Below are positions 9,861-61,781 of a stretch of 64,000 nt of DNA, in pieces (within the stretch, counting starts at the first letter, position 1; every line of letters starts with the position of its first letter). Origin of the DNA: an uncultured Acidimicrobiales bacterium (lineage in GTDB: Bacteria > Actinomycetota > Acidimicrobiia > Acidimicrobiales > VFJN01); NCBI GenBank assembly GCA_963735395.1, contig CAVTKV010000013.1:23861-87860 (forward strand). Reading direction: 5' to 3'. The position numbers and the translations under genes were made by a program. The notes beneath the pieces were generated by a model, which was not told where the DNA came from, did not search any database, and was given only the letters and a program-made list of their open reading frames with translations.

Positions 9861-12164
9861 ATGTCGGACATAGGCGATCACGCCGCGGCGGCTCGGCCCC
9901 GCGGTCGAGTCTTCGGGCGCAGACCCAAGGACGACTCCAGCATCTCGAAGGACCCCCGAGCCGCGTACGACGAGACGTTCGAGATCGAGCCGGACAAGCA
10001 GTACCTGGTCCACAACCGGACGCCGAACCGCATCCGGGTCCACGACAACGACTACGGCGATCTCTGCCTGGCGCCCCTGGCGCGGCGGGAGTTCGACGGC
10101 AAGCGGCTCGCTCCCTTCGCCCGCCATCTGCGCCCGCTGCGGCAGCGGCACCAGCTGCGCGTGCGCGACTGCACCTCCACCGCCACGTCCGTCTGGTGCC
10201 GGTTCGTCGTGTGGCTCGTGGCGCTGGCCGCCCTCGTTGCCGTCGTCGTCGACGTCCTCGTGTACGGCACCCTGTGCCGGGCCGAGGCCATCGCGACGAC
10301 GTCGGTGTTCGCCGCCGTCGTTCTCGTCGTCCTGCTCCTGGCTGCACACCGCGAGCACGGACGCGTCAAGGAGGCCCGCATCGCCGACACCGAGGAAGGT
10401 GACGTCGAGTTCGGCCTCGGCGACGCCTATACCGACGGCAACGACACCGTCCGGCGGACGAAGTACATCACCATGCTGCTGGTCGTGATCGTGGTGGGGG
10501 CAGTCCTTCCGGCCATCGCCATCTTCGTCGCCACGGACGCCAAGAGCTTCCTCGTCATGGAGGGCGGCCTCCACGTGAAGCAGGGGCTGGAGAGCCGGCT
10601 GGTGTCGAGGCTCGTCCAGGTCGTCTACACCGCGGTGCTCTCGCTGTTCCCGGCGCTCATGTACTTCCAGTTCGACCGCCAGCGGGTCGGCACCATCCGG
10701 GGCGGGTGGGTCCGGGCCATCTTCCGCATGGACCCGCAGATGGAGACGATGGCCGACATCGACGCCCACTACGGCGACCGGCTGGGCGAGGCGTCGAGCT
10801 TCTCGACCGACTCCGTGCGCTTCCTGGGCGGGCGCTACTCGCCGATCATCGTGGCCACGATCCTCATCAGCCTGGGTTGGACCCTTCTCATCCTCCCCAC
10901 GAAGTCGTTCGACTTCGCCGGCTCCAACGAGCTCTCGACCGTGGCGGCCGCCGCCGATTCGGCCTCCGAGCGGGCGCAGGCGGCGGCGGGGGACGGGTCC
11001 GCGACCGACACCCAGGCCGCCGCCGCCGAGGCGGACCGGAACCGCAACGCGGCCGAGGCCATCGCCGCCGAGAGCACCGGCTCATCGACCACGTCGACGA
11101 GCCAGCCAGACCTTCCGGAGGACGTCGACCAGGCCGCCGCCGCCGCCGAGGCGGCCGCCGCGGACGCCCGAGAGTCCGAAGAGAGTGTGCAGCTCTCGTT
11201 CTTCCAGCTGCTCGACCCGACACCCAGCGCGGCCACCATGGCGTTCCTCGGCGCCTACTTCTTCGCCGTCTTCCTGGTGCTACGCGGCTACTTCCAAGGT
11301 GACCTGCGACCCAAGCTCTACAACCAGATCACGGCCCGGCTGGTGACGGTCGTCGTGCTCGCCTACCTGATCAACGTGTTGCTCAAACCCTCCGGGGTGG
11401 AGGAGAACCTATGGTGGGCCATCGCCTTCCTGGCCGGCGTGGTCCCCATCACGGTGCTGCAGGGCTTCGGCCTGCTGATGTCGTCGGTGCTCGGCGACCT
11501 TCCCGGCAAGAGGGTCGAATGGTTGCGAAAGGCGTTCGCCAAGACGTTCGCGACACCCCGGGCGCTGACCCAGATCGACGGCATCGACATCTACGAGAGC
11601 GCCCGGCTCGAGTCCGAGGGGATCAGCGACGTCCCGTCGCTGGCCAAGACTGACCTGGTGTCGATGATGGTCAACACCCGCATGCCGGTGGAGCGCCTGG
11701 TCGACTGGTCCGACCAAGCCATGCTCGTGCTGCTGGTGGACGAGGGCGAGAACGACGACACCCGGGGCGGCAAGGGCCGGAAGGTCGACGGCCAGCACCG
11801 CGAGGCGAAGCCCGATCAGTCAGCTGCGCAGCATCGGGATCCGGCGAGGCGAAGCCGGATCAGCCAGCTGCGCAGCATGGGGATCCGCACGGCCTCAAGC
11901 CTGCTGGCCGTCGCCCAGGATGCCGATCAGCAAGACCGGTGCGCCGCCGCCGCCAAGATCCTCGGCGGGGACCCGCTGCTGAGGGGACTGGCCTGCCAGA
12001 TCGAGAAGGAGCCGTCGACCCGACGCATCCAGCATTGGCGCGAGGCCGAGCTGACCGACCTGTGCATCAGGCGTCCCCTCATCAAGGCGGGCCACGACCT
12101 GCCCTCCGATCCCCGCACGGTGGCCGGCAACGGGTCGCGCAGCACACGGGTGCCTACGCCGTAG
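9861..12164 (+). CDS. large polytopic membrane protein of unknown function (about 767 aa) with a central Ala/Asp/Glu-rich low-complexity linker
   Basis: ATG at 9861 preceded by GGAGGTG. There are 8 or more hydrophobic helices, a roughly 110-aa cytoplasmic N-domain and a C-terminal soluble domain (...IDGIDIYESARLESEGISDVPSLAKTDLVSMM...). It contains an out-of-frame 44-bp tandem duplication at 11800-11887. Confidence 0.75.
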   Translation: MSDIGDHAAAARPRGRVFGRRPKDDSSISKDPRAAYDETFEIEPDKQYLVHNRTPNRIRVHDNDYGDLCLAPLARREFDGKRLAPFARHLRPLRQRHQLRVRDCTSTATSVWCRFVVWLVALAALVAVVVDVLVYGTLCRAEAIATTSVFAAVVLVVLLLAAHREHGRVKEARIADTEEGDVEFGLGDAYTDGNDTVRRTKYITMLLVVIVVGAVLPAIAIFVATDAKSFLVMEGGLHVKQGLESRLVSRLVQVVYTAVLSLFPALMYFQFDRQRVGTIRGGWVRAIFRMDPQMETMADIDAHYGDRLGEASSFSTDSVRFLGGRYSPIIVATILISLGWTLLILPTKSFDFAGSNELSTVAAAADSASERAQAAAGDGSATDTQAAAAEADRNRNAAEAIAAESTGSSTTSTSQPDLPEDVDQAAAAAEAAAADARESEESVQLSFFQLLDPTPSAATMAFLGAYFFAVFLVLRGYFQGDLRPKLYNQITARLVTVVVLAYLINVLLKPSGVEENLWWAIAFLAGVVPITVLQGFGLLMSSVLGDLPGKRVEWLRKAFAKTFATPRALTQIDGIDIYESARLESEGISDVPSLAKTDLVSMMVNTRMPVERLVDWSDQAMLVLLVDEGENDDTRGGKGRKVDGQHREAKPDQSAAQHRDPARRSRISQLRSMGIRTASSLLAVAQDADQQDRCAAAAKILGGDPLLRGLACQIEKEPSTRRIQHWREAELTDLCIRRPLIKAGHDLPSDPRTVAGNGSRSTRVPTP
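11800..11887 (+). repeat. 44-bp tandem duplication (2 copies, 41 of 44 identical) inside the 9861..12164 CDS, not a multiple of 3
   Basis: gcgaggcgaagcccgatcagtcagctgcgcagcatcgggatccg / gcgaggcgaagccggatcagccagctgcgcagcatggggatccg. The copies are translated in different frames (REAKPDQSAAQHRDP vs ARRSRISQLRSMGIR). Confidence 0.8.
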
Positions 12165-15528: not shown

Positions 15529-15712
15529 CGTGAACGTTCCTCTCCGATCCGCGAGCCGTGCCCCGCACGCAGAGCGGGGCGACGCCGCCCAGAAGGAGGC
15601 ACACGGGTCGGCAGGAGATACACGTGCGAGCGGATGACCGGGCGTCGTCACTGAGTAAACCGGCGCGCTGCCGAGTGGGATCACCCTGCCGGCCCTCCGT
15701 CGTGTCCGCGAA

Positions 15713-16604
15713 TCACGCGGTGCCGAGGACCCGTCCGATCTCGGCGGCGATCTCGTCGGGCGCTTCGAGGTCCACGAAGTGACCGACGTGCGGGAGCGGC
15801 CGCCACTCGACCTTGCAGCCCGCATCCCGACTGCTCTTCCTGGCCACCGGGGCAGGCAGGGCGCCGTCCTGCATCCCCCACAGCATCGTGACCGGGACGG
15901 TGACCGGTGTCTCGTAGATGCGGTAGAGCTCCCGGCGCCGCCCCGGCACCAGCAGTCTGGCGACGAAGGCGCGGTAGTAGTCGATCGGCCCGCGCAGGTC
16001 GGCGGCGTGCCGGAACCGGCCGACGATCTCGTCGACCAGCCGGCGGTCCATCGAGCCCGGCCGACCCTCCCGGACCGTGAACGACCACCGCAGGAACCTC
16101 CGGCCCAGGCGGGTCGTCAGCAGGAACTCGGGGAGCCAGGGGATCTGGAACGGCAGGACCCATGGGATGCGCAGCGGCTGCAGGTGATCGAACGTCAGCG
16201 CCGCCCGTACCAGGGTCTTCGTGTGGGTGCAGTTGATCACCACCAGCCCACTGATCAGGTCGGAGTAGCGGTGGGCGAAGATCCAGCCGAGGCCGCCACC
16301 CCAGTCGTGGGTGACGAGCAGGGGCCGGTCGAGGCCCAGCACCTCGATCAGCGCCTTGACGTCGTCGGTCAGCGTGATGACGTCGGATCGACCCTTCGGC
16401 GGCGTCCGTTCCGGGATAGCCGCGCAGCGTCGGTGCGACCACACGGCAGTCGTCCACCTGTTCCATGACCGCCCGCCAGCTCATCCACCCCTCGGGGAAG
16501 CCGTGCAGGCACAGGACCGTCGGCGCGGTCGCCGGCCCCGACGCCGCCACGTGGAAGGTGATGCCGTTCGCCTCCACCTGCCGGTGTTCGATCGCGTGCG
16601 TCAC
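15713..16604 (-). pseudogene. alpha/beta hydrolase (haloalkane dehalogenase/epoxide hydrolase-like), split by a 1-nt frameshift
   Basis: The N-terminal part (VTHAIEHRQVEANGITFHVAASG...LCLHGFPEGWMSWR...RGYPGTDA) is in one frame. The continuation (...PKGRSDVITLTDDVKALIEVLGLDRPLLVTHDWGGG...) is in another. The shift is near 16385-16400 (gacgccgcc). Confidence 0.7.
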
Positions 16605-16754
16605 TACACCACCGAGGCGCGCGGGAGTGCCGCGGATACAAACGTCCGGCGGCAACGGTCTGGTCGGCCGTCACGCCAGATCATGTATTCGTGATGGCGG
16701 CTCGGGCTCTGTACCCACGAGGACGTCCCCACCGGTACGCCCGGCACCCGTCTG

Positions 16755-17138
16755 ATGGGAGGGCTCGTGCTCAGTCGTCGCAGCGCACGCCACGGGTTGT
16801 CGGTCGTCCGGATCGTCAACGGAACGCTCGGACTCGTCGCACCCGCCCTGTTGATCAAGCGCCTGGACCCGGACCGGGAGCCGAGCCCCGCCGCCGTCTA
16901 CGCCTTCAGGCTGTTCGGCATCCGCACGCTGCTGCTCGGCATCGACCTGCTGGTACGGCCGGAGGCCGAGATCCGTCGCGCCCTGCGCGAGGGGGTCGTC
17001 ATCCATGGCAGCGACGTGGCCACCGTCGTGCTGCTCGGGCTCCGGCACAAGATCCCGCACCGCACCGCCGTCGTGACGGCGCTCATCTCGGGCACCAACG
17101 TCGCCCTGGCCCTGACCGGCATGGAGCCGGAGCCGTGA
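16755..17138 (+). CDS. small integral membrane protein (first gene of the coupled heme-enzyme operon)
   Basis: 127 aa with 3-4 hydrophobic helices. Its TGA stop at 17136-17138 overlaps the GTG start of the peroxidase gene at 17135-17137. Confidence 0.6.
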   Translation: MGGLVLSRRSARHGLSVVRIVNGTLGLVAPALLIKRLDPDREPSPAAVYAFRLFGIRTLLLGIDLLVRPEAEIRRALREGVVIHGSDVATVVLLGLRHKIPHRTAVVTALISGTNVALALTGMEPEP

Positions 17139-18946
17139 GCGCGGCCCACCGTGCGACCCCGTTCTGGCGGGCCTACACCGCTCTGGCCGAGCGCGTCGAC
17201 CACGCGGTCGGGTGGGACCGGCTGCCCACGCCGCTCGGGTTGCTCACCCTCATCGGACTGCGGACCAAGCTGCGCCAGCAGAACCTCGTCGACACCACGG
17301 CCCTGCCGGCCGTCGACGTCCCGCCGGTCGGGGCGCCGGGCCCGCGCCACGTGACGAGCCGCGCCCCGGACGGTTCCTACAACGATCTGGAGTCGCCGGC
17401 CATGGGCCGCGCCGGGTCACGGTTCGGTAGGAACATCCCCCTCGACAGCATCGTGGACGTCACGGCCGACGAGGTGCTCACCCCCAGCCCCCGCGAGGTG
17501 AGCCGGGCGTTGATGACCCGGACCGAGTTCGTACCGGCCACGTCGGTCAACTCGCTGGTGGCGGCCTGGCTCCAGTTCATGATCCGCGACTGGTTCAGCC
17601 ACGGGACCAGCCCGGTCGACAACCCCTGGGTCGTGCCGCTCGCCGCCGACGATCCCTGGCCCGAGTCCCCGATGACGATCATGCGCACCCCCGAGGACCC
17701 AACGCGCCCGCCCGACGCCCGCGGCATGCCCCAGACCCGCGTCAACGTGCTCACGCACTGGTGGGACGGGTCGCAGGTGTACGGAACCGGTGCCGACGAA
17801 CAGCGGGCCTTGCGCAGCGGCACCGACGGCAAGCTGCGCGTCCGCGACGACGGGCAGCTGCCCCTGCCGACCGATCCCGACCACGACCCGTCCCGGGAGC
17901 CCGGGTTCTGGGTCGGCCTGCTCATGCTGCAGACGATCTTCGCGCTCGAGCACAACGCCATCTGCGACCACCTGCATGCGGCCTACCCGTCGTGGGACGA
18001 CGACGAGCTGTTCGAGCGGGCCCGGCTCGTCAACGCCGCGCTCATCGCCAAGATCCACACGGTCGAGTGGACGCCGGCGGTCATCAGCCACCCGACCACG
18101 AAGGCGGCGCTGCGGGCCAACTGGTTCGGCATCGCCGGCGAGCGCGTCCACCGGCTGTTCGGCCGCCTGTCTCGGGGCGAGGTGATCAGCGGCATCCCCG
18201 GCGGGGAGACCGACCACTACGGCGTGCCGTACAGCCTGACCGAGGAGTTCGTGGCCGTCTACCGGATGCACCCGCTCCTGCGCGACGACTGGCCGCTGCG
18301 CTCGGTGGCCGATGACGCCGTGCTCCAGGAGTGCACGTTCCGCGACCTGGCCGGGCCGCACGCGCTCGACGTCCTCGACAAGGTCTCCCTGACCGACCTC
18401 TTCTACTCGTTCGGCACGCTGCCCCCCGGGCTGGTCACGCTCTACAACTTCCCGAGGTTCCTCCAGGAGTTCGAACGCCCCGACGGTCACCTGCAGGACC
18501 TGGCGGCCACCGACATCCTGCGCACGCGCGAGCTGGGGGTGCCCCGCTACAACGAGTTCCGCCGGCTGCTCCACCTCGAGCCGGCCTCGGACTTCGAGAC
18601 GTTGACGGACAACCCGGGCTGGGCCGCGGAGATGCGCCGTGTCTACGACGGCGACGTCGAGCGGGTCGACCTCAGCATCGGCATGTTCGCGGAGCGCCGC
18701 CCCGAGGGCTTCGCCTTCAGCGACACAGCCTTCCGGGTCTTCATCCTGATGGCGTCGCGTCGCCTCAACAGCGATCGCTTCTTCACCGAGTACTACACCC
18801 CCGCCGTCTACACCCAGCAGGGGCTCGACTGGATCGACGACAACTCGATGGCGACCGTCCTGCTGCGCCACTACCCCCAGCTGCGGAGCTCGATGGCGGC
18901 GGCGGTCAACGCCTTCTCGCCGTGGACGCCTGCGGGCAGCGCGTGA
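17135..18946 (+). CDS. animal-type heme peroxidase / cyclooxygenase-like fatty-acid dioxygenase family protein
   Basis: About 603 aa matching the An_peroxidase fold: ...FMIRDWFSHG..., ...ALEHNAICDHL..., ...RLVNAALIAKIHTVEWTPAV..., ...LRTRELGVPRYNEFRR.... Confidence 0.9.
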   Translation: MSAAHRATPFWRAYTALAERVDHAVGWDRLPTPLGLLTLIGLRTKLRQQNLVDTTALPAVDVPPVGAPGPRHVTSRAPDGSYNDLESPAMGRAGSRFGRNIPLDSIVDVTADEVLTPSPREVSRALMTRTEFVPATSVNSLVAAWLQFMIRDWFSHGTSPVDNPWVVPLAADDPWPESPMTIMRTPEDPTRPPDARGMPQTRVNVLTHWWDGSQVYGTGADEQRALRSGTDGKLRVRDDGQLPLPTDPDHDPSREPGFWVGLLMLQTIFALEHNAICDHLHAAYPSWDDDELFERARLVNAALIAKIHTVEWTPAVISHPTTKAALRANWFGIAGERVHRLFGRLSRGEVISGIPGGETDHYGVPYSLTEEFVAVYRMHPLLRDDWPLRSVADDAVLQECTFRDLAGPHALDVLDKVSLTDLFYSFGTLPPGLVTLYNFPRFLQEFERPDGHLQDLAATDILRTRELGVPRYNEFRRLLHLEPASDFETLTDNPGWAAEMRRVYDGDVERVDLSIGMFAERRPEGFAFSDTAFRVFILMASRRLNSDRFFTEYYTPAVYTQQGLDWIDDNSMATVLLRHYPQLRSSMAAAVNAFSPWTPAGSA

Positions 18947-27861: not shown

Positions 27862-28058
27862 CCGGACCGGCCGTCCTCCCGAGCCCACGACGGTCCACCG
27901 GTCGGGGCCGACGATCGTCGATCGACGCCCGTCCGACGGGTCGGCGTGCCCCCCCGCCGCGCTGGCAGCTGAACCCGCCACCGAGCGACGCGCGGGCGGA
28001 ATCGTTGCGGCGCAGTTGTGTATGTTGTCCCCTCGCCGAGGGGCGGAGGTGAGAGGCG

Positions 28059-28893
28059 ATGGGGTGGGGACGGGTCGTCATCCGGGATCTCACCACCCAG
28101 ACCACGACGCTGGCGTCGGTGGGCGAGGAGTTCCACGCCGACCTGGCCACGTTCAGCCCCGACGGAGCGTGGCTGGCCTACACGAGCGGCGTCGTGGGGA
28201 TCGAGCGCGTCGGTGGAGCGCTGCAGGTGACCGCTCATCCCGAACCCGGCGGCATGGAGAGCCCGGCGTTCAGTCCTGACAGCGAGAAGGTCCTGTTCCG
28301 GACCTGGGAGCCGCTCGACCCCCGGGACCAGAACATCGTGGCCGACGTCTACCTCGTCGATCTCGACACCGGCGAGGTGGAGTTGGTCTCGGCCAACGAC
28401 GCCCAGAGCGGCAGCGGCAACCACATCTCCGGGGCCTACGTCGATCGGTCGGTGTTCAGTCCCGACGGCAGCAGGATCGCTTCGAGAGCTCAGCGGCGAC
28501 CTCACCCCAGGCAGACCTGCAGGAGTCTCGGAAACCGACGTCTTCGTCGCGCACTTCGTCGCCGCTTCGCAGACCGACCGTGCCATCGGTGACAACCCCG
28601 ACGACGGGCCCGGCCAGAACGCTCGAGCCTTCGGCAAGCCCGCCGGACTCAGCCCCGGGACCATCAGCATCACCGCCGGAAGCTGTGGCCAGCTCTACGA
28701 CGAGTACCGCGAAACCCTCCACTGCGACGTCGGAACGTTGCAACCCGGGGCCTCGGCCCAGCTCACCCTGGTGCTGGGTGTCGTCGCCGAGGCAGGAGCC
28801 ACCCTGGACAGCGTGGCGTTGGTCGACCTGGCGCCGACCCTCGACCCCCACGGCGAGGACAACGTCGCCCTGACGGCAGTGACGGTCGGCTAG
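28059..28893 (+). pseudogene. WD40-like beta-propeller (PD40/TolB-like repeats) plus DUF11 domain protein, frameshifted (+1) near 28485-28495
   Basis: PD40 repeats (FSPDGAWLAYTS, FSPDSEKVLF, FSPDGSRIAS) are in frame 0 up to about 28490, which then reads junk to a stop at 28592. The +1 frame continues as ...DLTPGRPAGVSETDVFVAHF...TISITAGSCGQLYDEYRETLHCDVGTLQPGASAQLTLVLGVVAEAGATLDSVALVD... (DUF11-like) to a TAG at 28893. Confidence 0.55.
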
Positions 28894-29535: not shown

Positions 29536-30045
29536 TCAACGCTGGTCGGCCAACCAGGCGTCGACGCGGCGCTCGGCCTCGGCGGGGTCGACGTCCTCGA
29601 CCCGGGTCATGACGGCCCAGCGGTGGCCGAAGGGGTCGAGGAAGGCCGCGTACCGGTCGCCCGTCACGAACGTGTCGGGCTCGCCGTAGCCGTGCGCGCC
29701 CAGCTCGACGGCCCGCGCGTACGCGGCGTCCACGTCGGGCAGGTAGACGACGGTGGAGTTGCTGACGTCGTCGTCGCCGGAACGGGCGACGAGGTGGTGG
29801 TCGGGTGCGGGGTCGCTGAGCTGCATCCGGCCGGTCGCCAGCTCGAGCTCGCAGTGCGCGACCGTCCCGTCGGGGCCGTCGTTGCGGGACACGACCCGGG
29901 CACCGAGCACGGCTGCGTAGAAGGCGATGGCCCGCTCGGCGCCGTCGACGCAGAAGTACGGGGTGAGGGTCGTGTAGCCGGGCGGGACGGGGCTGGCGGC
30001 CGGCGTCGGAGCGGTGTCGCGGTCGGTGTGGGTGGTCGCGTCCAT
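29536..30045 (-). CDS. VOC-family protein (glyoxalase/bleomycin-resistance fold, PhnB-like)
   Basis: The C-terminal 169 aa of the composite ORF (...LTPYFCVDGAERAIAFYAAVLGARVV...GDRYAAFLDPFGHRWAVM...). Confidence 0.8.
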   Translation of the reverse strand: MDATTHTDRDTAPTPAASPVPPGYTTLTPYFCVDGAERAIAFYAAVLGARVVSRNDGPDGTVAHCELELATGRMQLSDPAPDHHLVARSGDDDVSNSTVVYLPDVDAAYARAVELGAHGYGEPDTFVTGDRYAAFLDPFGHRWAVMTRVEDVDPAEAERRVDAWLADQR

Positions 30046-30153
30046 GGGGTCGATGGTGCCTACGCTGACCGCTTGGCGTCTTGCAGAAACGCGACAAATC
30101 CGCGATCCCTGCCACCGGACCTGCCCCGCCCGCCGACGTCGTCGACGGCGGGT

Positions 30154-30990
30154 GTGCTGTGGCCCGACGTCGGCCGGCGGTACTTCACCCTCACCCGCCC
30201 CGCGGCGCATGCGGACCTGGCGCCCTGGGTCGAGCGGTACTGGACGGTGCGCTGGCAGCTGCCACCGGGCACGTCGTACACCTCGACGGTGCTGACCCAC
30301 CCGAGCGTGCACCTGTCGGTGGAGTCCGGGGCGGGGCCACGACACGGCTTCGTCATGCCCGAGGCGCTGGTGCACGGCGTGGTCACCCGCACGTTCGCCG
30401 TCGAGCTGAGCGGTAGCGGGCGCGTGTTCGGGGTGAAGTTCCGGCCCGGCGGGTTCGGCGCGTTCACCGGTCGCGACGTCGCTACGCTCACCGATCGGAT
30501 CGTCCGGCTGACCGACGTGTTCGGCGAGCCGGCCAGAGACCTGCTGCGCGACGTGTGCGCGAGCGACGACGACGCCGTGGCGACGCTCCGCATGGATGCG
30601 TTCCTGCGCGAGCGCAGGCCAGCCCCGGACGACCGGTACGACCAGCTCCTCGGCATCGTCGCCGGCGTGCTCGCGGACCGCGACCTCATCACGGTGCACA
30701 CGGTCACCGAGCGCTTCGGGGTCTCGACCCGCACCCTCCAGCGGCTCTTCCGGCGCTATGTCGGGGTGGGCCCGAAGTGGGTGCTCCAGCGATTCCGGCT
30801 GCATGACGCCCAGTTGCTCCTGGAGTCCGGTGCGGCGCCCGACCTGGCGACGCTCGCCGCGAGCCTCGGTTGGTCCGACCAGGCGCACTTCAGCCGGGAC
30901 TTCCAGACCACTGTGGGGATCCCACCGGGCAGGTACACGGCCGGTCCTCGGGCCACGCCCGACGGCTTGCCCCGCCCCGCGGCGTCGTAG
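30154..30990 (+). CDS. AraC-family transcriptional regulator (DUF6597-type N-domain plus C-terminal HTH)
   Basis: The C-terminal VHTVTERFGVSTRTLQRLFRRYVGVGPKWVLQRFRLHDA...LGWSDQAHFSRDFQTTVGIPP is the AraC HTH pair. Divergent from the VOC gene. Confidence 0.8.
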   Translation: MLWPDVGRRYFTLTRPAAHADLAPWVERYWTVRWQLPPGTSYTSTVLTHPSVHLSVESGAGPRHGFVMPEALVHGVVTRTFAVELSGSGRVFGVKFRPGGFGAFTGRDVATLTDRIVRLTDVFGEPARDLLRDVCASDDDAVATLRMDAFLRERRPAPDDRYDQLLGIVAGVLADRDLITVHTVTERFGVSTRTLQRLFRRYVGVGPKWVLQRFRLHDAQLLLESGAAPDLATLAASLGWSDQAHFSRDFQTTVGIPPGRYTAGPRATPDGLPRPAAS

Positions 30991-31048
30991 CGCCGGGCTC
31001 TCGCCGGAGTCTCCCGGGTGTCATGCCTGGCGTCTTCGGCCCGGATCG

Positions 31049-31882
31049 TCACGCCGGGCCGCCCGCCTCGACCGACGGGCTGGGCGGTGCCGACAGCGTC
31101 ACCACAGCCTCGCTGGTGTAGACGACGAAGGTCAGCGTCTCGTGGAAGTACAGCCGGATGGTGGCGCTGTCGTGCTCGAGGTAGCCGATCGCGACGTCCT
31201 GGCCGATGTGCAGTTCGTAGTCGCCGCCGCGTGTGGACAGCAGGAAGGCGCCGTCGATGGCGGGTGCCCAGATGATCTCCCCGTCCACGAGACGGGAGAC
31301 GTGCTCGTGGATCGGGTAGCCCTGGTCGGAGGTCTCACTGACCGCGGTGTAGGCGTCGGCGCTGAGAACCAGTGTGTACGGACCGTTGACGCCGGCCAGT
31401 CGCAATGCGGTCACGGCTTGGCTGATGGCGTCGGGATAGCTGCGCACGTCCGTCGGGAGCGTGATCGCCGGGTTGGACGAGCTGGCGCGAATCCCGGTGA
31501 TGCCGGCCGCGGCGTACCCCTCGAAGATCGCGCGGTCTTCGGCGAAGGCCATCCGGCGGGCGGCGTCCTTGACCGGCTGCCAGTCCGCGTCCTTGGCTCC
31601 GCGTTCGACGTCGTCGACCTGTTGCCGATCGACGGTGAAGGGAACGCGCAGTTCGACGATCGGCTGCGAGCGGCGTGTATGGGCGATGACGCCGTCCGAT
31701 TGCGGATCGATGGCCTGCAGGTGCCCGGTGCCGACCGCCGACAGCTCAACCCCTCCCGGGTCCGCGACATCGACGATGCGACGGCCGGCCACGTGACTCC
31801 TGAACGTGCGCCCTGCTTCCTGCTCCAGGCCAATCCATGCGGCCGCGGAGATCGGCGCCAGTTCCCGATGCAGGTTGTTCAT
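31049..31882 (-). CDS. family 1 encapsulin nanocompartment shell protein (Mycobacterium Enc/Cfp29-like)
   Basis: MNNLHRELAPISAAAWIGLEQEAGRTFRSHVAGRRIVDV...DWQPVKDAARRMAFAEDRAIFEGY...GYPIHEHVSRLVDGEIIWAPAIDGAFLLSTRGGDYELHIGQDVAIGYLEHDSATIRLYFHETLTF is closely encapsulin-like. The internal ATG at 31882 is preceded by AAAGGAAG (RBS). Confidence 0.85.
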   Translation of the reverse strand: MNNLHRELAPISAAAWIGLEQEAGRTFRSHVAGRRIVDVADPGGVELSAVGTGHLQAIDPQSDGVIAHTRRSQPIVELRVPFTVDRQQVDDVERGAKDADWQPVKDAARRMAFAEDRAIFEGYAAAGITGIRASSSNPAITLPTDVRSYPDAISQAVTALRLAGVNGPYTLVLSADAYTAVSETSDQGYPIHEHVSRLVDGEIIWAPAIDGAFLLSTRGGDYELHIGQDVAIGYLEHDSATIRLYFHETLTFVVYTSEAVVTLSAPPSPSVEAGGPA

Positions 31883-32953
31883 CGACACGTCGCTTCCTTT
31901 GAGGTCGCCGATCCCGAGGGATTCCCGGACCGGCCTTTCAGGTTCAGGTGGCGCGCCAGTCGCGGCGTCGGCGAGCACCTCGTCTCGGACCCGGGTCGCT
32001 GCGATGCTTGGCGGATCGGGCGGGTCGTCGAGGAAGTCGGCACTCGGGACGAAGAACAGCGTGCCGGTCACGGGGGTGGAGAAATCCAGGATCCGGTCGT
32101 GCCTCGCCGGCGGATCGCCGAGGAACATCCGCTCCAGCATCCGTTCGGTGACCGTCGGGGTGCGGGCGTAACCGATGAAGTACGTGCCGAAGTCACCGCG
32201 CCCCACTTCGCCGAAGGGCATGTTGTCCCGCAGGATCTTGCGCTCTGTCCCGTCGGGATCGACGATCGTGGTCAGCGCGACATGGGAGTCGGCCGGCTTG
32301 ACGGCGTCGTCGAGCTCGATGTCGGACAGCTTCGTGCGGCCGACCACCATTTCCTGGGTCTCGACCGGCAGGGCGTTCCACGCCTGCAGATCGTGCAGGT
32401 ACTTCTGCACGATCACATAGCTCCCGCCCGCGAATTGCGGGTCCTCGTCGCCGATCAGCACGGCGTCCCTGGCCACCGGGCCGACGGGGTTCTCCGTCCC
32501 GTCGACGAAGCCGAGCAGGTCCCGTACGTCGAAGTACTTGAACCCGTGCACCTCGTCGCGGACCGTCACCACGTCGCGCACCCGATCGATGATCTGCGAC
32601 CCCAGCTCGAAGCACAGGTCGGGCCGCTGTCCCCGGATGTGGAACAGCAGGTCACCTGGTGTGGCCACAGCATGGTGGACCGGCCCGAGGAGCTCGCGGA
32701 ACGGGTGCAGCTCGACGGGGCGCGGCCCGGCGAACAGCCGGTCCCAGGCCTGGGAACCGATCCCGGTGACGCAGCTCAGCCTGCCTTCCTGCGCCCGGAA
32801 GCCGACGGCCCGCTGCACGCCCGACAGCTCGGACAGCAAGGCCCGCACGCGGGACTCACCTCCTGGATCGATCGTCACCACGAGGAAGAGCGCCGCCCTT
32901 GTCAGCGGGCTCAGCACCGCCTGGGGGATCACCTCCCGCCCGGAATCTGTCAT
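31883..32953 (-). CDS. DyP-type peroxidase (B-class, encapsulin cargo type) with a C-terminal cargo-loading peptide; no stop codon before the encapsulin ATG
   Basis: ...FKYFDVRDLLGFVDGTENP..., ...GGSYVIVQKYLHDLQAWNAL..., ...MPFGEVGRGDFGTYFIGYA.... The C-terminal ...RESLGIGDLKGSDVS matches the encapsulin targeting-peptide consensus (SLGIGSLK-like). The ORF continues in frame into MNNLHREL.... Confidence 0.85.
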
Positions 32954-33217
32954 CGCCGTTCACTCCCCCGTGCGCTGTCACGGCCGCAGGACGGTCTCGA
33001 TGACGCCGGCGGCGCGCCGGTCGAATGCACCGTACAACCCGGGCGCGTCAACGGGTTCTCAACAGCACCCAGCGTGCAGTCGCTCCGGCGCGACCTGCCT
33101 CACGCGTGCGCGTGGTTGTGGCCGGGGCCAGCATCGACGCTCGTCGACGCGATCGGCGACCACGACGGGGGCACCCGAGAGCCAGGGGCGGCCGCGAAGA
33201 CCCAATAGCCTGCCCGG

Positions 33218-34267
33218 ATGGGAGAGGTCAGCGGCGATGAGCGACGGCAAGTACGTCCTCGGCGATCGCTGCTGCTTCGACTGGCCTTGGGTGTTGCCGC
33301 CATCGGAGCGGTGGTGTTCTTCTCCTGGCGGGAGCGGCACGTGTTCACCGGTCTCACCTCGACCATGTCGCGCGTCACCTGGTACTGGGTGCCGCTCGCG
33401 TTCGTGGCGGAGATGGCCTCGATCCCTCCGCTCGCGGAGGCGCAGCGGATCTTGCTCCGGGCCGGCGGGGCGAACGTGAGCCGGCGCCGGATGAACCTGG
33501 TCACGCTGGCGAGCAACGCGGTCTCCATGTCGGTTCCTGCCGGCGTGGCCGTGGCAGAGGGTTACACCTACGCGCAGTACCGTCGGTTGGGGGCGAGCAC
33601 GGCCGTGGCCGGTTGGGCCGAGCTCGCCTCCGGTGCCCTCTCCTTCGCCGCCCTCGCCGCGGTGGCGCTGACGGGAGCCGCGACCAGCGGCGGTCGGGCG
33701 GAAGGGATACTTCTGCCGATCCTGTCCGTGGTCGTCGCGGGGTCGTTCGCCGCCGCCGCGCTGTTTAGCCATCCGAAGGTCCTCATCGCGGCGATCGACT
33801 GGATCGACGGCCACCTCAGTCGGCACCTGGGAAGATTGCGGACGATGGCCGACCGCGTTCGCCGTATCTCTCACCAGCTCAGCCACGTGAACGCTCCGAT
33901 CTCCACCTGGATGACGGCATTCTGGCTCTCCGCGGCGAACTGGCTGCTCGACGTGGCTTCGCTCGTCCTCGCCTTCCAGGCGGTCGGCGGTCCCGTCCCG
34001 TGGGGAGCGGTCCTCCTCGCGTTCGCCGGCTCGAAGGTGGTCTCGAGCATCGGGATCACGCCGGGCGGCGTGGGGATCGTCGAAGGAGGGCTCGTGGCCG
34101 TGCTCGTGGCGTACGGGACCTCTGGGTCGACCGCCGTCGCCGCGGTGGTCGTCTATCGGGCCCTGACCTTCATCGGGCTCGTCGGCCTGGGCTGGCTGGC
34201 CGCCGGGCGCTTGGCCATCGAAGCCCGGGGCCAGGCCCACCGGCCAACGGCGCCCACCCCGGCGTGA
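33218..34267 (+). CDS. lysylphosphatidylglycerol-synthase-TM-like / flippase-like membrane protein (UPF0104)
   Basis: 8 or more TM helices. ...KVVSSIGITPGGVGIVEGGLVAVL... is characteristic of the LPG_synthase_TM/MprF-like family. Confidence 0.75.
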   Translation: MGEVSGDERRQVRPRRSLLLRLALGVAAIGAVVFFSWRERHVFTGLTSTMSRVTWYWVPLAFVAEMASIPPLAEAQRILLRAGGANVSRRRMNLVTLASNAVSMSVPAGVAVAEGYTYAQYRRLGASTAVAGWAELASGALSFAALAAVALTGAATSGGRAEGILLPILSVVVAGSFAAAALFSHPKVLIAAIDWIDGHLSRHLGRLRTMADRVRRISHQLSHVNAPISTWMTAFWLSAANWLLDVASLVLAFQAVGGPVPWGAVLLAFAGSKVVSSIGITPGGVGIVEGGLVAVLVAYGTSGSTAVAAVVVYRALTFIGLVGLGWLAAGRLAIEARGQAHRPTAPTPA

Positions 34268-34608: not shown

Positions 34609-36065
34609 ATGACGACGGGGGCGGGGGTGACGATGATTGAGCGCAGGCGGTTCCGTCTGTCCGCCAGGCTGCGGATCCTGGGGTGGATCCTGGCGTTGAC
34701 CACGCTGGCGGTCGTGGGTGCCCTCGTGCTGTCGCGGCGTCTGTTGCTCGAGCAGCTCGACGCCGAGGTGACCGATCACCTGGAGCAGGAGCTGGATGAG
34801 ATCAGGGTTCTGGCGGGTGGGCGGGACCCGGAGACCGGTCAGCCGTTCGGGGCGGACGTGGCGGCCATCTTCGACACGTTCCTGGGGCGCAACGTGCCGG
34901 GCGAGGGTGAGGCGCTGTACACGTTCGTGGACGGGAGTTTCTACAAGGCCACCCAGGCGCCGGTGCCGCTGGATCGAGGAACCGGCGGCCGGTGGCCGGT
35001 GGGCCGAGTTGACGGGCCCGGGTCACGGTGAGCTGTCCAGCGATGCGGGGTCGGTGCGTTGGGTGGCCGTGCCGCTGCGCGACGCCGAGGGCGAGACGCT
35101 GGGGGTGTTCGTGGTGGCGAACTTCCTGCGCGGCGAGCGCGACGAGATCGCCGACGCCATCAACACGGGGTTCGTGGTGGCCGGAGCGATGCTGGTGGTG
35201 GCAGCCCTGGTGGGCTGGGCGGTGGCCGGGCGGATCCTGCGACCGATCCGTGAGGTGACCGAGACCGCCCGGGCGATCAGCGAGAGCGACCTGTCAGGGC
35301 GGATCGCCGTGGAGGGTGACGACGAGATCGCGGAGCTGGCCCGCACGTTCAACGCCATGGTCGACCGGCTCGAAACGGCGTTCGTCAGTCAACGGGCTTT
35401 CATCGACGACGCCGGCCACGAGCTGCGCACGCCCATCACGATCGTGCGTGGCCATCTCGAGCTGCTGGGCGATGACCCGGACGAGCGGCGCGAGGCGGTC
35501 GCGCTGGTCACCGACGAGCTCGACCGCATGAGCCGCATCGTCGATGACCTGTTGCTGCTGGCCAAGCTGGAGCACCCCGAGTACCTCCGTCCGGCGTCGT
35601 TCGAGGTCGAGCCCTTCACCGTGGAGCTGTTCGCCAAGGCCCAGACGTTGGGCGACCGGCGCTGGCGGCTCGCGGCGGCGTCCGAGGGCATGGTGGTGGC
35701 CGACGAGCAACGCCTGACCCAGGCAGTCATGAACCTGGCCCGCAACGCCGTCGAGCACACCGGCACCGAGGCCATGATCACGCTGGGGTCGGCGGTGGTC
35801 GATGGTGAGGTGCGGTTCTGGGTGGCCGACACCGGTCCGGGCATCGCCCCTGACGAGCACGCCGCGATCTTCGAACGTTTCGCCCGGGGCGGCGATCGTC
35901 GGCGTCGCTCCGACGGCGCCGGGTTGGGGCTGGCGATCGTGCGGGCGGTGGCTGACGCGCATGGCGGACGGGTCGAGCTCGACAGCCGAGCCCGGCGCGG
36001 GTGCCGCGTTCACCATCAGCATCCCGGCACAGCGGCCCGAGGGGGCGACATGGCCCGCATCCTGA
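34609..36065 (+). pseudogene. sensor histidine kinase (TM-sensor-TM-HAMP-HisKA-HATPase) interrupted by two 1-nt frameshifts, at about 34970-35030 and about 35986
   Basis: The N-terminal sensor is in frame 1 and stops at 35031. HAMP/HisKA/HATPase (HELRTPIT..., ...GLGLAIVRAVADAHGGRVELDS) is in frame 2. The canonical C-terminus EPGAGAAFTISIPAQRPEGAT is in frame 0. As written, frame 2 runs straight into the response regulator, giving a 642-aa HK-RR fusion ORF. Confidence 0.6.
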
Positions 36066-36724
36066 TCGCCGAGGACGAGACCCGGATCGCGAGCTTCCTG
36101 GAGAAGGGCCTGCGGGCCAACGGGTTCGCCACCACGGTGGTCGACGACGGTGTGGTGGCGGCTGCCATGGCCCGAGACTCGGACTTCGACCTGCTCATCC
36201 TGGACCTCGGCCTGCCGCGGCTGCACGGCCTGGATGTGCTCCGCGCTCTGCGTGGGCGGGGCGAGCGTCTGCCCGTGCTGATCCTCACGGCTCGCGACGC
36301 GTTGGACACGACGGTCGCAGGGTTCGAGCGTGGCGCCGACGACTATGTCACCAAGCCGTTCCGGTTCGAGGAGCTGCTGGCCCGCATCCGGGTGCGGCTG
36401 CGGGGCGAGGGAGCCGAGGAGACGACCCTGCTGCGCGGCGGGCCGATGACGCTCGATCTGCGGACGCGGCGGGCCTCGGTGGGGGACCGCACCGTCGAGC
36501 TGACGGCCCGCGAGTTCGCGCTGGCCGAGACGTTCCTGCGTCACCCCGACCAGGTGCTGTCGCGCGAGCAACTCCTGTCGCACGTCTGGGGCTACGACTT
36601 CGACCCCGAGTCGAACATCGTCGACGTCTACGTGCGCTACCTCCGCAAGAAGCTGGGCGACGGCGCCATCGAGACTGTGAGGGGGATGGGCTATCGCCTG
36701 GCGACTGGCCACGGGGGGAGCTGA
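36050..36724 (+). CDS. OmpR-family response regulator
   Basis: MARILIAEDE...DLLILDLGLP... receiver domain plus a winged-helix C-terminus (...VLSREQLLSHVWGYDFDPESNIVDVYVRYLRKKL). Confidence 0.9.
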   Translation: MARILIAEDETRIASFLEKGLRANGFATTVVDDGVVAAAMARDSDFDLLILDLGLPRLHGLDVLRALRGRGERLPVLILTARDALDTTVAGFERGADDYVTKPFRFEELLARIRVRLRGEGAEETTLLRGGPMTLDLRTRRASVGDRTVELTAREFALAETFLRHPDQVLSREQLLSHVWGYDFDPESNIVDVYVRYLRKKLGDGAIETVRGMGYRLATGHGGS

Positions 36725-40791: not shown

Positions 40792-42864
40792 TCAAACCAC
40801 GGGCCGCCCCCTCACCCACGACGCCGGGGACGCCGTCGCCGGAACGGGGCTGCGCGCCTCGTGGCGGCGGCCCGGAAACCTCAATCGGTTCTTGTCGACG
40901 ACGAAGCAGAACTTTCCCGCGTGATCGCCGTAGTGGAAGGCGAGAGTGAGGACGCACGCCGCCATGTAGGCGGCGCTCAGGGCGCACCACGCGAGGCCGT
41001 TCGCGGCGAAGAGCACCATCCAGGCGACCTGGTGGGCGACGAACCCTGCCTCGGTCAGCACGTACGGCCAGTGCACCTTCACGCTGTCCGTCTTGGTGGC
41101 GGTCGGCGCGCCGGCCGGCAGCTCGATCGCGGCGTTCGGCCGACCGGGTGCTCCCGCCGGTTCGACGCCCTCGCCCGGTTCGCCCACCGTGGGCCTCGTG
41201 GTCACCGTCGCGGCCTTGGGGGTGCGCTCGAACTCGCTGTGCAGCGGACCGAAGAGGCCTTCGGAAAAGGCGCTGAACTGATGCGGGAGCATCCCGGTGT
41301 TGATGATGAGGTACGGGACGACGCGCCCGAAGTGCCCCAGCACGCCTCGCGGCGTGATCCTGCCGGGGTAGGTGTGCTTCGTCTCGATCGACGCCACGGT
41401 CGCGGCCACGGCGATCCAGAGCGCGCTGGGCAGCACGTACAGCAAGACCCCGACCGCGGCACCGAAGGACCCGAACCAGTGATCGGTGTAGATCATGAAC
41501 GGCAACATCGTGATCCAGACGGCCCAGGCGGGCCATTGCCACGCGATGCACATGTGGTAGAGCAGATGGAGCCGCCTGAGCCCTGAGCACCGATACCGGA
41601 ACAGCAGCGTCGACAGGTGCAGCTTCTGGAGCTGCACCCAGCCCTGCGTCCAGCGCTTCTGTTGCGCCTTGTACGCGGTGTAGGTCGCCGGCAGCTCGGC
41701 GGGAGCGACGATCTCCTTCACGAACTTCGTGCGGTACCCGGCGAACAGATGCCGGAAGCTCAGCTCGCAGTCTTCGACCAGGCTCGCGGCGTGCCAGCCC
41801 CCGGCGGCCTCGATGGCCGAGGCCCGCCAGACACCGGCCGTGCCGGTGAAGTTGACGAACTGCCACATCGCCGAGCGCCATGACATCTGCAGCGTGTGGT
41901 GGTCATCGACCCACAGCGACTGTGCGAGGGTCAGCGCCGACTCGTCGTGGTTGAGGTGCCCCCACTGCGCCTGCACGAGCGCGAGACCGGTGTCGGGCTG
42001 GCCATTCGGGAGGAAGAAGTGCGGGATGGCGTTCAACAGGAAGTCCTGCGGCGGCAGGAAGTCCGAGTCGAAGATCACGAGGAACTCGGCGTCGGTCTCC
42101 CGGCGACCCTCCTCGAGGGCGCCGGCCTTGAAGCCGCGGCGATCGACGCGGTGCCGCACGTAGCAGTGCACACCGGTCGACGCACGGATGTTGGCGCACA
42201 CCTCCTCGACGAGCGCCCGCGTGTCATCGTCGGTGGAGTCGTCGAGGACCTGCACGCTGAACCGGTCTGCCGGCCAGGTCATCGCGGCAGCGGCCTCGAT
42301 GACGCGCTGCGCTACCGCGTGCTCGTTGAACATGGGGAGCTGCACGCAGACGGTGGGAGTCACCGCCGGCAGTCGCCCAGGTTGCTCGGGCACTCGCCCC
42401 CGCCAGAAGAAGCCCAGGCGTTCGACCAGTCCGCCCGCGAGGAAGAACGCGATCACGAAGTACGGCAGGTGAAGGGTGGCCGTGAGCACCCACCAGCCTG
42501 CACTGTGCACCGCGAACCACCCGCTCCCGGCGTCCCGTGTCGCGGCGTACGCGAACAGCCAGACGGCCACGCCGAACGCGCCGAGTTGTGGCATCCACCA
42601 GCGGAAGCGCACGGGACCCTCCCGCGCCACCGGCGACGAGGTCGCCGATGAGAGTGGATCGAGACCCGGGGACGAGGCCACTTGCGCGCTGTCGTCCGTC
42701 GCGATGTCAGCGAGCCCACTGCCGGCGATGCGCTCGGACCTGGTGGCCGGCCGAGGCGGGGTCCCCGCCGGGGATCGATCGCGCCGATCGCGACGCCGCT
42801 CGCGAGTGCCGGGAGCGAGGCCGAGTCCGCGGCGCCGCGCGGTGGGGCTGGGCTGGGAGGTCAA
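40792..42864 (-). CDS. family-2 glycosyltransferase, processive beta-glycan-synthase-like (QxxRW type) with N- and C-terminal TM helices
   Basis: VQLPMFNEHAVAQRVIEAAAAMTWPADRFSVQVLDDSTDD..., DSD (DxD), VEDCELSFR and QQKRWTQGW (QxxRW). The true start may be internal (GTG at about 42630 or ATG at about 42594). The first 80 aa are Arg/Pro-rich. Confidence 0.8.
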   Translation of the reverse strand: MTSQPSPTARRRGLGLAPGTRERRRDRRDRSPAGTPPRPATRSERIAGSGLADIATDDSAQVASSPGLDPLSSATSSPVAREGPVRFRWWMPQLGAFGVAVWLFAYAATRDAGSGWFAVHSAGWWVLTATLHLPYFVIAFFLAGGLVERLGFFWRGRVPEQPGRLPAVTPTVCVQLPMFNEHAVAQRVIEAAAAMTWPADRFSVQVLDDSTDDDTRALVEEVCANIRASTGVHCYVRHRVDRRGFKAGALEEGRRETDAEFLVIFDSDFLPPQDFLLNAIPHFFLPNGQPDTGLALVQAQWGHLNHDESALTLAQSLWVDDHHTLQMSWRSAMWQFVNFTGTAGVWRASAIEAAGGWHAASLVEDCELSFRHLFAGYRTKFVKEIVAPAELPATYTAYKAQQKRWTQGWVQLQKLHLSTLLFRYRCSGLRRLHLLYHMCIAWQWPAWAVWITMLPFMIYTDHWFGSFGAAVGVLLYVLPSALWIAVAATVASIETKHTYPGRITPRGVLGHFGRVVPYLIINTGMLPHQFSAFSEGLFGPLHSEFERTPKAATVTTRPTVGEPGEGVEPAGAPGRPNAAIELPAGAPTATKTDSVKVHWPYVLTEAGFVAHQVAWMVLFAANGLAWCALSAAYMAACVLTLAFHYGDHAGKFCFVVDKNRLRFPGRRHEARSPVPATASPASWVRGRPVV

Positions 42865-42931
42865 CTCGGACTCATCTCTCGTGGGGGATCCGTTGACCTC
42901 CGCACCATGGGGGCAGCGGATGAGATGAGCG

Positions 42932-42956
42932 TGAGGTCATTCTGAGAATCACCTCA
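42932..42956 (+). promoter_or_regulatory. 25-bp imperfect palindrome TGAGGTCATTCTGAGAATCACCTCA (22 of 25 symmetric) flanked by GATGAGATGAG / TCATCTG, upstream of the GT2 gene
   Basis: Seen in the sequence in a low-GC patch, about 70-90 bp upstream of the GT2 start on the minus strand. Confidence 0.4.
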
Positions 42957-52940: not shown

Positions 52941-53105
52941 GTCAGCGTCTCCGTGCCCGAGAGGGCTGCAGCGCGGCGAGCAGGCTCGGATAGTCCGGGG
53001 CACCGTCGTGACGCACGCCGTTGACGACGAAGGTGGGCGTGCCGTTGACCCCGCTGCGCACTCCGCTCAGGAAGTCCTGACGCACCCGGCCGGCGTGAAT
53101 GTCGA
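52941..53105 (-). pseudogene. DsbA-like thioredoxin-fold protein, C-terminal remnant
   Basis: Minus-strand translation ...FDIHAGRVRQDFLSGVRSGVNGTPTFVVNGVRHDGAPDYPSLLAALQPSRARRR* matches the DsbA C-terminus (GV.GTPTFfvNG). There is no upstream body in frame. Confidence 0.4.
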
Positions 53106-59899: not shown

Positions 59900-61781
59900 G
59901 TGGTCCGATCGCGACCGCAGCCACGTGCCCTATCTGTATCGACTGGCATGTCGGGCGCGCCACGGGAGGAGGCGAAAGGCGTGGTGATCGAACGGTTGGC
60001 CGGCGACGGTGTCGAGCCCACGGCCAGCAGATCACCGGGAGACCGCGCGGCATTCCCGCGTCGGCCCGATCAGCACGTCACACGGGTGTCCCTGCGCCAG
60101 CGGGTGTCGTTCGTGGCCCTGGCGATCGCCCGGCTCAGCTGGCTGCTGGTCCTGAGCCTGCTCGCCGCCCCTGCGCTGCTTGTCCGCAACGCCTTCGGAC
60201 CGACCACCGGGCCCCGTGTCCTGCGTTGGTACTTCGAGACCTGCGGTGGCGGCTACGTGAAGGTCGGTCAGTTGCTGGCCACCCGGTACGACCTCCTACG
60301 AGCTGACTACACCGAGGAGCTCGGCAAGCTCCTCGACTCGTTGCCGCCGGTTCCCACCGCGACGATTCGCCAGGTGGTCGAGCGTGAGCTGGGGCGACCG
60401 ATCGCCGACGTGTTCGCGCTGTTCGAGCCCCGACCGATCGCAACGGCGTCACTGGCGCAGGTGCACGGCGCCGTGCTCGCCAACGGCGACGACGTCGTCG
60501 TGAAGGTCCTCAAACCGGGGATCAACGAGCGCGTCCGCATCGACCTGGCGTTCCTGCGGGTCACCGCCCGGGTGATCGACGTCCTTCCGGTGCTCCGGGG
60601 CCTCGACGTGAGCGGGCTGATCGACGAGCTCTCCCGCACGGCCATCGAAGAGCTCGACCTCGGCCGAGAGGCCATGTACACCTCCTACCTCCACGACCAG
60701 ATGGCGGCGGACCCGATCGCCCACTACACGCCGAAGGTCTACCGCCGCCTGTGCACCCGGAACATGCTCACCCTCGAGCGCATCCGCGGCGTGACCGTGC
60801 GGGAGATGCTGACGGCGATCACCAACGGCGACGACCCCACGCTCGAGTCGTGGGCCGCACGTGGGATCACACCCGAGCGCACCGCCGTGGTCCTGCTGCG
60901 GTCCGTCCTCGAGCAGACCATGCGGCTCCGGTTGTTCAACGCCGACCCGCACCCGTCGAACCTGATCGTCAGCGACGGTGGCACGCTCAACTGGGTCGAC
61001 TTCGGCCTGGTCGGATGGATCGACGAGCGTCAGTGGGAGTTGCAGCTGCGCCTGAGGGATGCGATCACGCAGGATCGCATCCACGACGCGTACGTCGCGC
61101 TGCTCGAAGGGCATGGAGCCCCTGCCCTTCCGAGACCTCAGCGGCTTCGAGCAGGAGATCAAACAGAGCCTGCAGGACTACCTGATCGCGTCGAACGACC
61201 CGAACGCGCCGCTGAGCGAGAAGAGCACAGGGTCGTTCCTGCTCAAGACGCTGGCGACGCTGCGCCGCAACCGACTGCCCATGACCTCCAGCACCGTTCA
61301 GCTCTACCGCACGATCCTGATCGCCGACATCGTGATGCTCGGCCTATACCCGTCCATCGATTGGCGGGGTCACCTCCGCCGGTTCCTCCGGGACTTCTCC
61401 ACCGACCTCATCGAGCAGGCCGTCGTCCAACCTCTCACCTCGCCCTACACCGGATACCGGCTGGCACGGGCGCCGATGGCCGTGGCCGACACGATGGAAT
61501 GGCTGATGCGGCGCCTCCCGGACATCGGCCGCCAGACATTGCGCACGCTCTCGGCCAGCGAACGGCTCATCCCGCACGCCCTCCGGCTGCTGCGCCGGGC
61601 GGTCGGGATCTGGATCGTCGCCGTGATCGCGCTCGCCGTGATCCAGCCCGACTTCTCGCGTCGCAGCGCGCTCGGCCGATTTGCCCTTCGCATCGAGGAC
61701 AATCCCTGGCCGTATCTCGGCGCCGGCGTGCTCGCCGTCCTCCTCCTGAGCTCGTTCGTTCGGAAGATGGAGACGACGTAG
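59900..61781 (+). pseudogene. ABC1/UbiB-family atypical kinase with an N-terminal TM helix, frameshifted at a GGG run at about 61120-61130
   Basis: YVKVGQLLATRYDLLRADYTEELGKLLDSLPP, VLKPGINERVRIDLAFL, ADPHPSNLIV (catalytic loop), DFGLVG (DFG). After ...VALLEG the frame shifts, and ...MEPLPFRDLSGFEQEIKQSLQDYL...(C-terminal TM) continues to 61781. Confidence 0.7.

Follow-up and report, generated by a model that had tools for sequence, protein, structure and literature searches.

The closest described relatives of the locus considered here are the two-gene systems in which a DyP-type peroxidase is the cargo of a family-1 encapsulin shell. Two-gene dyp-enc systems have been characterized in Mycobacterium smegmatis (PMC8072242) and in Klebsiella pneumoniae (PMC10960027), and the DyP encapsulin systems of M. 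tuberculosis, Rhodococcus, and Brevibacterium have been listed as well (bioRxiv 10.1101/085266). In M. smegmatis the shell measures about 240 Å in diameter, its wall is 25 Å thick, and it contains a DyP dodecamer of 180 × 90 Å (PMC8072242); the cargo of a native shell ranges from one DyP hexamer to no more than three (PMC10960027). Covalent cargo-shell fusions also occur naturally among family-1 encapsulins, namely the archaeal Flp fusions found in Pyrococcus furiosus and in Sulfolobus solfataricus, with T=3 shells, and the diheme cytochrome c fusions of anammox bacteria (PMC8346489; bioRxiv 10.1101/085266). Our subject is a dyp-enc locus on the minus strand of a 64 kb stretch of DNA from an uncultured Acidimicrobiales bacterium (contig CAVTKV010000013.1), the whole of which was analyzed and is called the window from here on. 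As written, the window joins the peroxidase and the shell protein in a single open reading frame (ORF). Comparison with relatives traces this joining to one extra base just ahead of the shell gene, and the apparent fusion most likely reflects an insertion error, made in sequencing or assembly, in a two-gene DyP-encapsulin operon of the ordinary kind.

The locus shares with the family-1 DyP operons its domain content, its gene order, and the SLGIGxLK motif. The ORF list of the window gives one ORF of 634 codons with an ATG start (31049..32953, minus strand), in which DyP, the targeting peptide SLGIGDLKGS, and the encapsulin follow one another, all intact and with no stop codon between them. Pfam places Dyp_perox_N at residues 11-139 and Dyp_perox_C at residues 143-306 of the 634-residue translation; PF04261 and PF20628 are matched near full length, and the GXXDG motif expected of a DyP-type peroxidase is present as GFVDGTENP. 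The NCBIfam model Dyp_perox_fam (TIGR01413) scores 288 bits on the same half. The other half matches Linocin_M18 (PF04454) at residues 358-608 over the entire profile (1-253/253, E=3e-97) and the NCBIfam equivalog for family-1 encapsulins (NF041155) at residues 361-620 with 349 bits, where the cut-off is 100, so at the level of sequence families this is a family-1 shell protein. Because both halves are full-length, high-scoring domains, the 634-codon ORF is not a chance reading frame. The peroxidase coding region (31883..32953, minus strand) supplies residues 1-357, about 39 kDa, which end in ...SLGIGDLKGSDVS and run on into the shell gene (31049..31882, minus strand); the latter encodes a 277-residue Enc protein of 29.6 kDa that begins MNNLHRELAPIS..., and the computed mass of the fusion is 68.5 kDa. 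The targeting peptide (31892..31921, minus strand; fusion residues 345-354) is of the C-terminal SLGIGxLK type known from the DyP cargo of family-1 systems and lies directly ahead of enc, with four codons separating it from the Enc start. Read along the coding strand, the sequence over the junction is ctc aaa gga agc gac gtg tcg ATG aac aac ctg, which gives L K G S D V S M N N L. A Shine-Dalgarno-like element for enc, AAAGGAAG (31893..31900, minus strand), is contained within the K-G-S codons of the targeting peptide at a distance of 10 nucleotides (nt) from the ATG. The description of the locus in the earlier note, which had been made from the letters of the sequence alone, agrees with these results: the ORF list and the junction sequence both give a 634-residue DyP ORF that reads into enc without a stop, the translation and the Pfam and NCBIfam searches support a targeting peptide at the DyP end followed by a canonical family-1 encapsulin from an in-frame ATG, and the internal ribosome-binding site 10 nt ahead of the retained ATG had been read correctly from the sequence as given. 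A scan for sigma-70 promoters and terminators around the operon gave nothing useful, the consensus being ill-suited to an actinomycete of 70% GC.

The origin of the continuous frame becomes apparent from the closest relative of the DyP half, a 98% identical protein (P0009) that stands alone, is 357 residues long, and ends in ...SLGIGDLKGSDVR. Its gene lies on contig L001, from the Logan assembly of run SRR25641406, where dyp spans 4184-5257 and enc runs from 5254 on, an overlap of 4 nt. At the junction L001 reads GAC GTT CGA TGA AC and the window reads GAC GTG TCG ATG AAC; in the pairwise alignment (ACGT-TCGATGAAC versus ACGTGTCGATGAAC) the two differ by one base. The surplus base is on the side of the window, a G on the coding strand (C on the plus strand) at 31886, 5 nt ahead of the ATGA overlap, and its placement comes from the pairwise DNA alignment with L001 and from a deletion test. 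Because of the +1 shift that starts at 31886, dyp enters the frame of enc and its TGA is skipped. The stop codon has not been substituted, as GTGTCGATGAAC still holds the usual ATGA stop/start overlap (31879..31882, minus strand), in which the enc start (31882-31880) lies over the ancestral stop of dyp, a TGA at 31881-31879 that the dyp frame now misses. The spacing between the Shine-Dalgarno-like element and the enc ATG is 9 nt in L001, one less than in the window. Removal of 31886 in silico gave a DyP of 357 residues that ends in GSDVR, stops at 31881-31879, and has its C-terminus as in P0009. As written, the window lacks a dyp stop and encodes one polypeptide; with this one base removed it encodes two separate polypeptides, and the locus is a standard ATGA-overlap member of the family-1 DyP operons. 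A lost stop, through sequencing error or strain mutation, had been foreseen as one branch in the earlier note. That branch is essentially borne out, with the correction that the change is a 1-nt insertion and not the TGA-to-GGA substitution named there.

The junctions of more distant relatives point in the same direction as L001. A scan of GTDB with one genome per species returned 80 loci, and the DyP frame was followed to its stop in the 58 of these where the C-terminal motif of DyP could be found together with the N-terminus of Enc. The DyP stop lies at or just beyond the enc start in all 58, and read-through from dyp into enc was found in none of them; the window alone does this. The most common arrangement (18 of the 58) is the ATGA overlap of -4, the form found in L001 and in the closest GTDB loci L023 (Nonomuraea), L026 (Microtetraspora), and L027, while the remaining junctions have a 20-nt overlap (13 loci), a TGATG (5 loci), or gaps of 0-30 nt. 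In many relatives the DNA upstream of enc contains long open stretches, of up to 573 codons; these were considered as DyP and rejected, since tracking of the DyP frame showed them to be off-frame readings of GC-rich DNA. Among metagenomes, an exact-pattern scan for either junction allele gave 0 matches, and a degenerate junction pattern that permitted spacers of 7-10 nt matched 19 contigs, every one of which has the canonical 9-nt spacer and a DyP stop. None of these relatives shares the inserted base of the window. Alignment to orthologues was the comparison that the earlier note had singled out beforehand as able to speak against a fusion, and it did so: the stop is kept in L001, in 58/58 GTDB loci, and in 19/19 metagenome contigs, and the window is one base different. 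A covalent cargo-shell fusion as an evolved or functional architecture is not supported; the same +1 lesions in neighboring genes, described below, make a technical origin the most likely one.

Two further features of the junction are conserved across the relatives. The SLGIGxLK motif stands at the DyP C-terminus in all of them, and 83 of 86 loci have a Shine-Dalgarno-like core at 4-14 nt upstream of the enc ATG; in 66 this core abuts the IGxLK codons. This core matters for a reading of the window in which the extra base is real and recoding is programmed, with ribosomes shifting frame at the junction so that free DyP is regenerated and the ratio of DyP to fusion is set. Shine-Dalgarno-like elements stimulate frameshifting in prfB and dnaX, and the window has such an element 10 nt upstream of the junction. 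Initiation of enc accounts for the element, however, and relatives without a frameshift conserve it too. Moreover, GAC GUG UCG AUG AAC contains no slippery heptamer or CUU-UGA-type shift site, and the arrangement is conserved nowhere among the 58 GTDB loci and 19 metagenome contigs. We regard programmed recoding as extremely improbable.

Protein collections offer what could be taken as company for the fused ORF. Of the best 120 matches to the fusion, about 30 combine a DyP domain with Linocin_M18, a finding that favors an evolved, selectively maintained DyP-encapsulin fusion, the DyP counterpart of the archaeal Flp-fusion encapsulins. These database proteins are 57-66% identical to the window, and no protein identical to the full-length fusion was found in the protein collection search; an exact look-up of the 277-residue Enc in the contig index likewise gave no match. 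Nearly all of them are singleton clusters (one cluster has 3 members), their junctions differ from each other, many have a scrambled targeting peptide (RSASDLSKET, for example, is an off-frame reading of DGSLGIGSLKGD), and several contain internal frameshifted stretches (P0002, P0010, P0014). Both sources that were traced are MAG (metagenome-assembled genome) or metagenome assemblies that look long-read: P0004 comes from GCA_963730745.1, whose CAVS... accession belongs to the series of the MFD MAGs, and the source of P0007 is an ENA assembly in which the contigs are named in the style of Flye. Isolates from the clades of the database fusions have dyp and enc as separate genes. Three of the proteins (P0006, P0007, and P0011) have in common an off-frame reading across about 25 linker residues, and this shared linker frame, which also counts in favor of an evolved fusion, could reflect either a systematic error that recurs or an allele that is real in their alphaproteobacterial clade. 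The database DyP-Enc fusions are best read as the same artifact as in the window and not as a natural fusion family; their interpretation as a conserved natural clade was rejected for now, given that the junctions differ and that the traced sources are MAG or metagenome assemblies.

A comparison with the established fusion encapsulins leads away from an evolved fusion as well. The Flp and cytochrome fusions are like the ORF of the window in that the cargo is at the N-terminus of the shell protein and hence lumenal on assembly. They are conserved across clades and form their own sequence cluster, whereas the junction of the window is conserved among none of its orthologues, whether in close relatives, the 58 GTDB loci, or the 19 metagenome contigs. 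In the anammox cytochrome fusion, a dedicated linker of about 35 residues joins cargo and shell (bioRxiv 10.1101/085266). The window, in contrast, has no dedicated linker, only four codons after an intact targeting peptide, and it retains the internal Shine-Dalgarno element and ATG, the start signals of the shell gene. In a fusion protein, the targeting peptide, Shine-Dalgarno element, and ATG would now be redundant, and their persistence so close to the junction would make the fusion event very recent and the linker unadapted. Also unlike the Flp and cytochrome fusions, the cargo in the window is a large hexameric enzyme in a shell that is expected to be small (T=1). Censuses of family-1 encapsulins list no DyP fusion class (PMC8346489; bioRxiv 10.1101/085266). 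Taken with the near-singleton and often scrambled state of the database examples, these differences make an evolved fusion very unlikely. Frameshift chimeras at ATGA overlaps in indel-prone assemblies show the same merger of adjacent genes by a one-base indel just upstream of a 4-nt overlap, and no difference between them and the window was detected.

The extra base at 31886 is not an isolated lesion. By blastn, the window and L001 are 97.8% identical over 5.25 kb with six one-base indels, and in five of the six the extra base is on the side of the window. The three indels in coding sequence all damage genes of the window that are intact in L001, in that the histidine kinase is split, the kinase is fused to its response regulator, and dyp is fused to enc. 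The first extra base in the histidine-kinase gene (34965..34973, plus strand) cuts the kinase after ...QAPVPL (ORF 34609..35031), and the protein resumes in another frame; a one-base deletion at this site restores ...QAPVPLIEEPAAGGRWAELTG... The second, near the 3′ end of the kinase gene (35989, plus strand), leaves the remainder of the kinase joined in frame to the response regulator, which gives an ORF of 642 codons (34796..36724) with HAMP, HisKA, HATPase_c, Response_reg, and Trans_reg_C together (...VELDSRARRG...MARILIAEDE...). The counterparts in L001 are an ordinary 484-residue kinase and a 225-residue regulator, encoded by separate genes with a 16-nt overlap. This kinase-regulator fusion, 4 kb from dyp-enc, is the same phenomenon. 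The remaining three indels are intergenic: a G-run upstream of the dyp start (32964-32965) is one base shorter in the window than in L001, and single extra bases occur just upstream of the kinase start (34600) and just downstream of the regulator stop (36733). The regulator is of the OmpR type, and the kinase-regulator pair spans 34609-36724 (plus strand).

Further frame breaks were sought over the entire window with a frame profile of GC content at third codon positions (GC3). In an alpha/beta-hydrolase gene (15684-16670, minus strand), positions 1-45 of Abhydrolase_1 are in one frame and positions 45-243 in another, with a +1 break at 16380..16439. Any single-base deletion within 16380-16439 yields one ORF in which Abhydrolase_1 is continuous over 1-243/245 with 74 bits, and the repair test required that both conserved motifs fall within one ORF. 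A probable +1 break lies at 61075..61100 in a gene for an ABC1/UbiB-type kinase (59885-62035, plus strand), where the GC3 signal changes frame at about 61.09 kb and the first frame stays open to 62035. The three-frame translation is continuous over the switch, and a one-base deletion gives an ORF of 631 residues with hydrophobic stretches at the C-terminus. The end of the ABC1 Pfam match at 222/244 was considered as evidence for a frameshift and rejected, as the repaired protein ends at the same point; because this truncation argument fails and homology gives no confirmation, the break is rated as only probable. A second probable break is found in a PD40-repeat gene (28053-28893, plus strand) at about 28500, where the coding signal changes frame some 60-100 nt ahead of the point at which the first frame stops. 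The tally for the 64 kb is four confirmed and two probable frame breaks, each a single extra base (+1). The window, and presumably the whole assembly, has about one insertion-type frame break per 10-15 kb.

A technical insertion error fits this pattern far better than independent mutations do, because insertion-only breaks have hit genes that are intact in a 98% relative, and a technical cause is most likely. If the base at 31886 were instead a real, recent, strain-specific frameshift, the cell would make a 68.5-kDa chimera of DyP, linker, targeting peptide, and Enc and no free DyP, and free Enc of 29.6 kDa would arise only by internal initiation from the retained Shine-Dalgarno element and ATG. 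The sequence as given encodes exactly such a chimera, with the internal Shine-Dalgarno element at its 10-nt spacing and the ATG both intact. With the ATGA arrangement, any +1 shift close to the end of dyp leads to a fusion in a single step, and natural N-terminal cargo fusions of family-1 encapsulins, those with Flp and cytochrome, exist and assemble (PMC8346489; bioRxiv 10.1101/085266). A mutational origin would have to explain, however, why the same +1 lesion appears in at least three other genes, the nearby two-component system among them, and it needs a burst of mutations, all of them insertions, that is implausible for a lineage only about 2% away from an intact relative. The allele was also found in no relative examined (58 GTDB loci, 19 metagenome contigs). 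A shell made of the chimera throughout is sterically implausible, as 60 DyP copies would take up a computed volume of about 2800 nm3, or 67% of a 20-nm sphere. For this reason only mixed shells could form if the base is real, and in these a small number of chimeras could be built in alongside free Enc and tether DyP inside the shell, the N-terminus of Enc facing the lumen as stated for natural N-terminal fusions (PMC8346489). We consider a real frameshift unlikely, though not negligibly so, and the outcome that would come with it, a covalent chimera plus free Enc without free DyP and a cargo stoichiometry set by read-through versus internal initiation, is similarly doubtful.

Several observations weigh against an insertion error as the source of the extra base. 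Direct separation of an error from a real mutation depends on the reads. The inserted bases are mostly outside homopolymers, unlike the classic error signature of nanopore sequencing or pyrosequencing. Several long genes are unbroken, such as the coding ORFs 9342-12164, 17135-18946, and 40792-42936, which points to a modest error rate, and no explanation covers the grouping of three breaks within 4.1 kb. Finally, the strain behind L001 is not that of the window (97.8% identity), which in principle leaves room for mutations specific to one strain.

With an insertion error as the preferred explanation, the operon in the organism would follow the two-gene plan. The dyp gene would end in ...SLGIGDLKGSDVR-TGA, its stop overlapping the enc start as ATGA, and the 357-residue DyP would be made as a free protein that forms hexamers. 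Its C-terminal targeting peptide would bind the luminal face of Enc. By analogy with M. smegmatis and K. pneumoniae, the shell is expected to be a T=1 assembly of 60 Enc subunits that would enclose one or two DyP hexamers; icosahedral assembly and cargo encapsulation are predicted for this locus from homology to the same two systems. Translation of enc would start from the Shine-Dalgarno element within the targeting peptide's K-G-S codons and would probably be aided by termination-reinitiation coupling at the ATGA.

If the fusion were true, it would be the first natural fusion of a DyP to its shell protein, with a bearing on cargo stoichiometry and on the evolution of fusion encapsulins from two-gene operons, and the strain would be a natural one-step experiment that turns peptide-targeted loading into tethered loading. 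As things stand, the value of the locus is mostly cautionary. At an ATGA overlap, a clean and plausible-looking fusion ORF with both domains intact results whenever the upstream gene has a +1 indel at its end, and dozens of such DyP-Enc chimeras are already in the protein databases. Efforts to mine MAG or metagenome data for fusion encapsulins, or for domain fusions of other kinds, should compare each junction with close relatives and look for nearby frame breaks. The result also flags the assembly quality of the window.

The junctions of the relatives yielded some observations of their own. The codons at the end of the targeting peptide (CTC AAA GGA AGC, CTG AAG GGG AGC, or CTG AAG AGG AGC, for L-K-G/R-S) double as the Shine-Dalgarno sequence of enc, and the targeting peptide and the ribosome-binding site of enc may constrain each other. 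The 13 loci with a 20-nt overlap of dyp and enc (L032, L033, L038, L041, L045-L047, L059, L062, L063, L073, L074, and L076) are from Streptomyces in 12 cases and from Streptantibioticus in one (L074). Their DyP proteins have a conserved extra tail past the targeting peptide, ...KRSxPDEEPAP*, which is encoded over the first enc codons in a different frame. At L018 (about 4060-4075; MAG MFD06742.bin.1.182), an extra T in the first enc codons (AACCTTGCAT versus AACCTGCAT) breaks enc, and this locus is a further case of indel damage at dyp-enc in a MAG.

The genes flanking dyp-enc in the window are ordinary. They are a divergent gene for an LPG_synthase_TM membrane protein (33218-34267), the two-component system described above, a convergent gene for an AraC-type regulator (about 30145-30990), and a gene for a glyoxalase-family protein (about 29536-30060). 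An ORF of 870 codons (30596-33208, plus strand) runs antisense to the whole dyp-enc operon and its flanks and has no domain support; it is a stop-poor off-frame artifact of 70% GC DNA and not a gene. Two other places in the window were considered as frame breaks and rejected. The frame switches at 54.1-56.5 kb, which involve a pyridoxamine oxidase, an unknown gene, and an epimerase, fall on stop codons and are ordinary boundaries between genes. A DsbA C-terminal fragment at 52945-53163 (minus strand) has no upstream room for the rest of the domain. This fragment, of 73 codons, covers the last 44 positions of the DsbA-like thioredoxin domain (profile 148-191/191) and looks like a truncated remnant. 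On reading the sequence of the gene directly upstream of it, the C-terminal part looks like a CGNR zinc finger.

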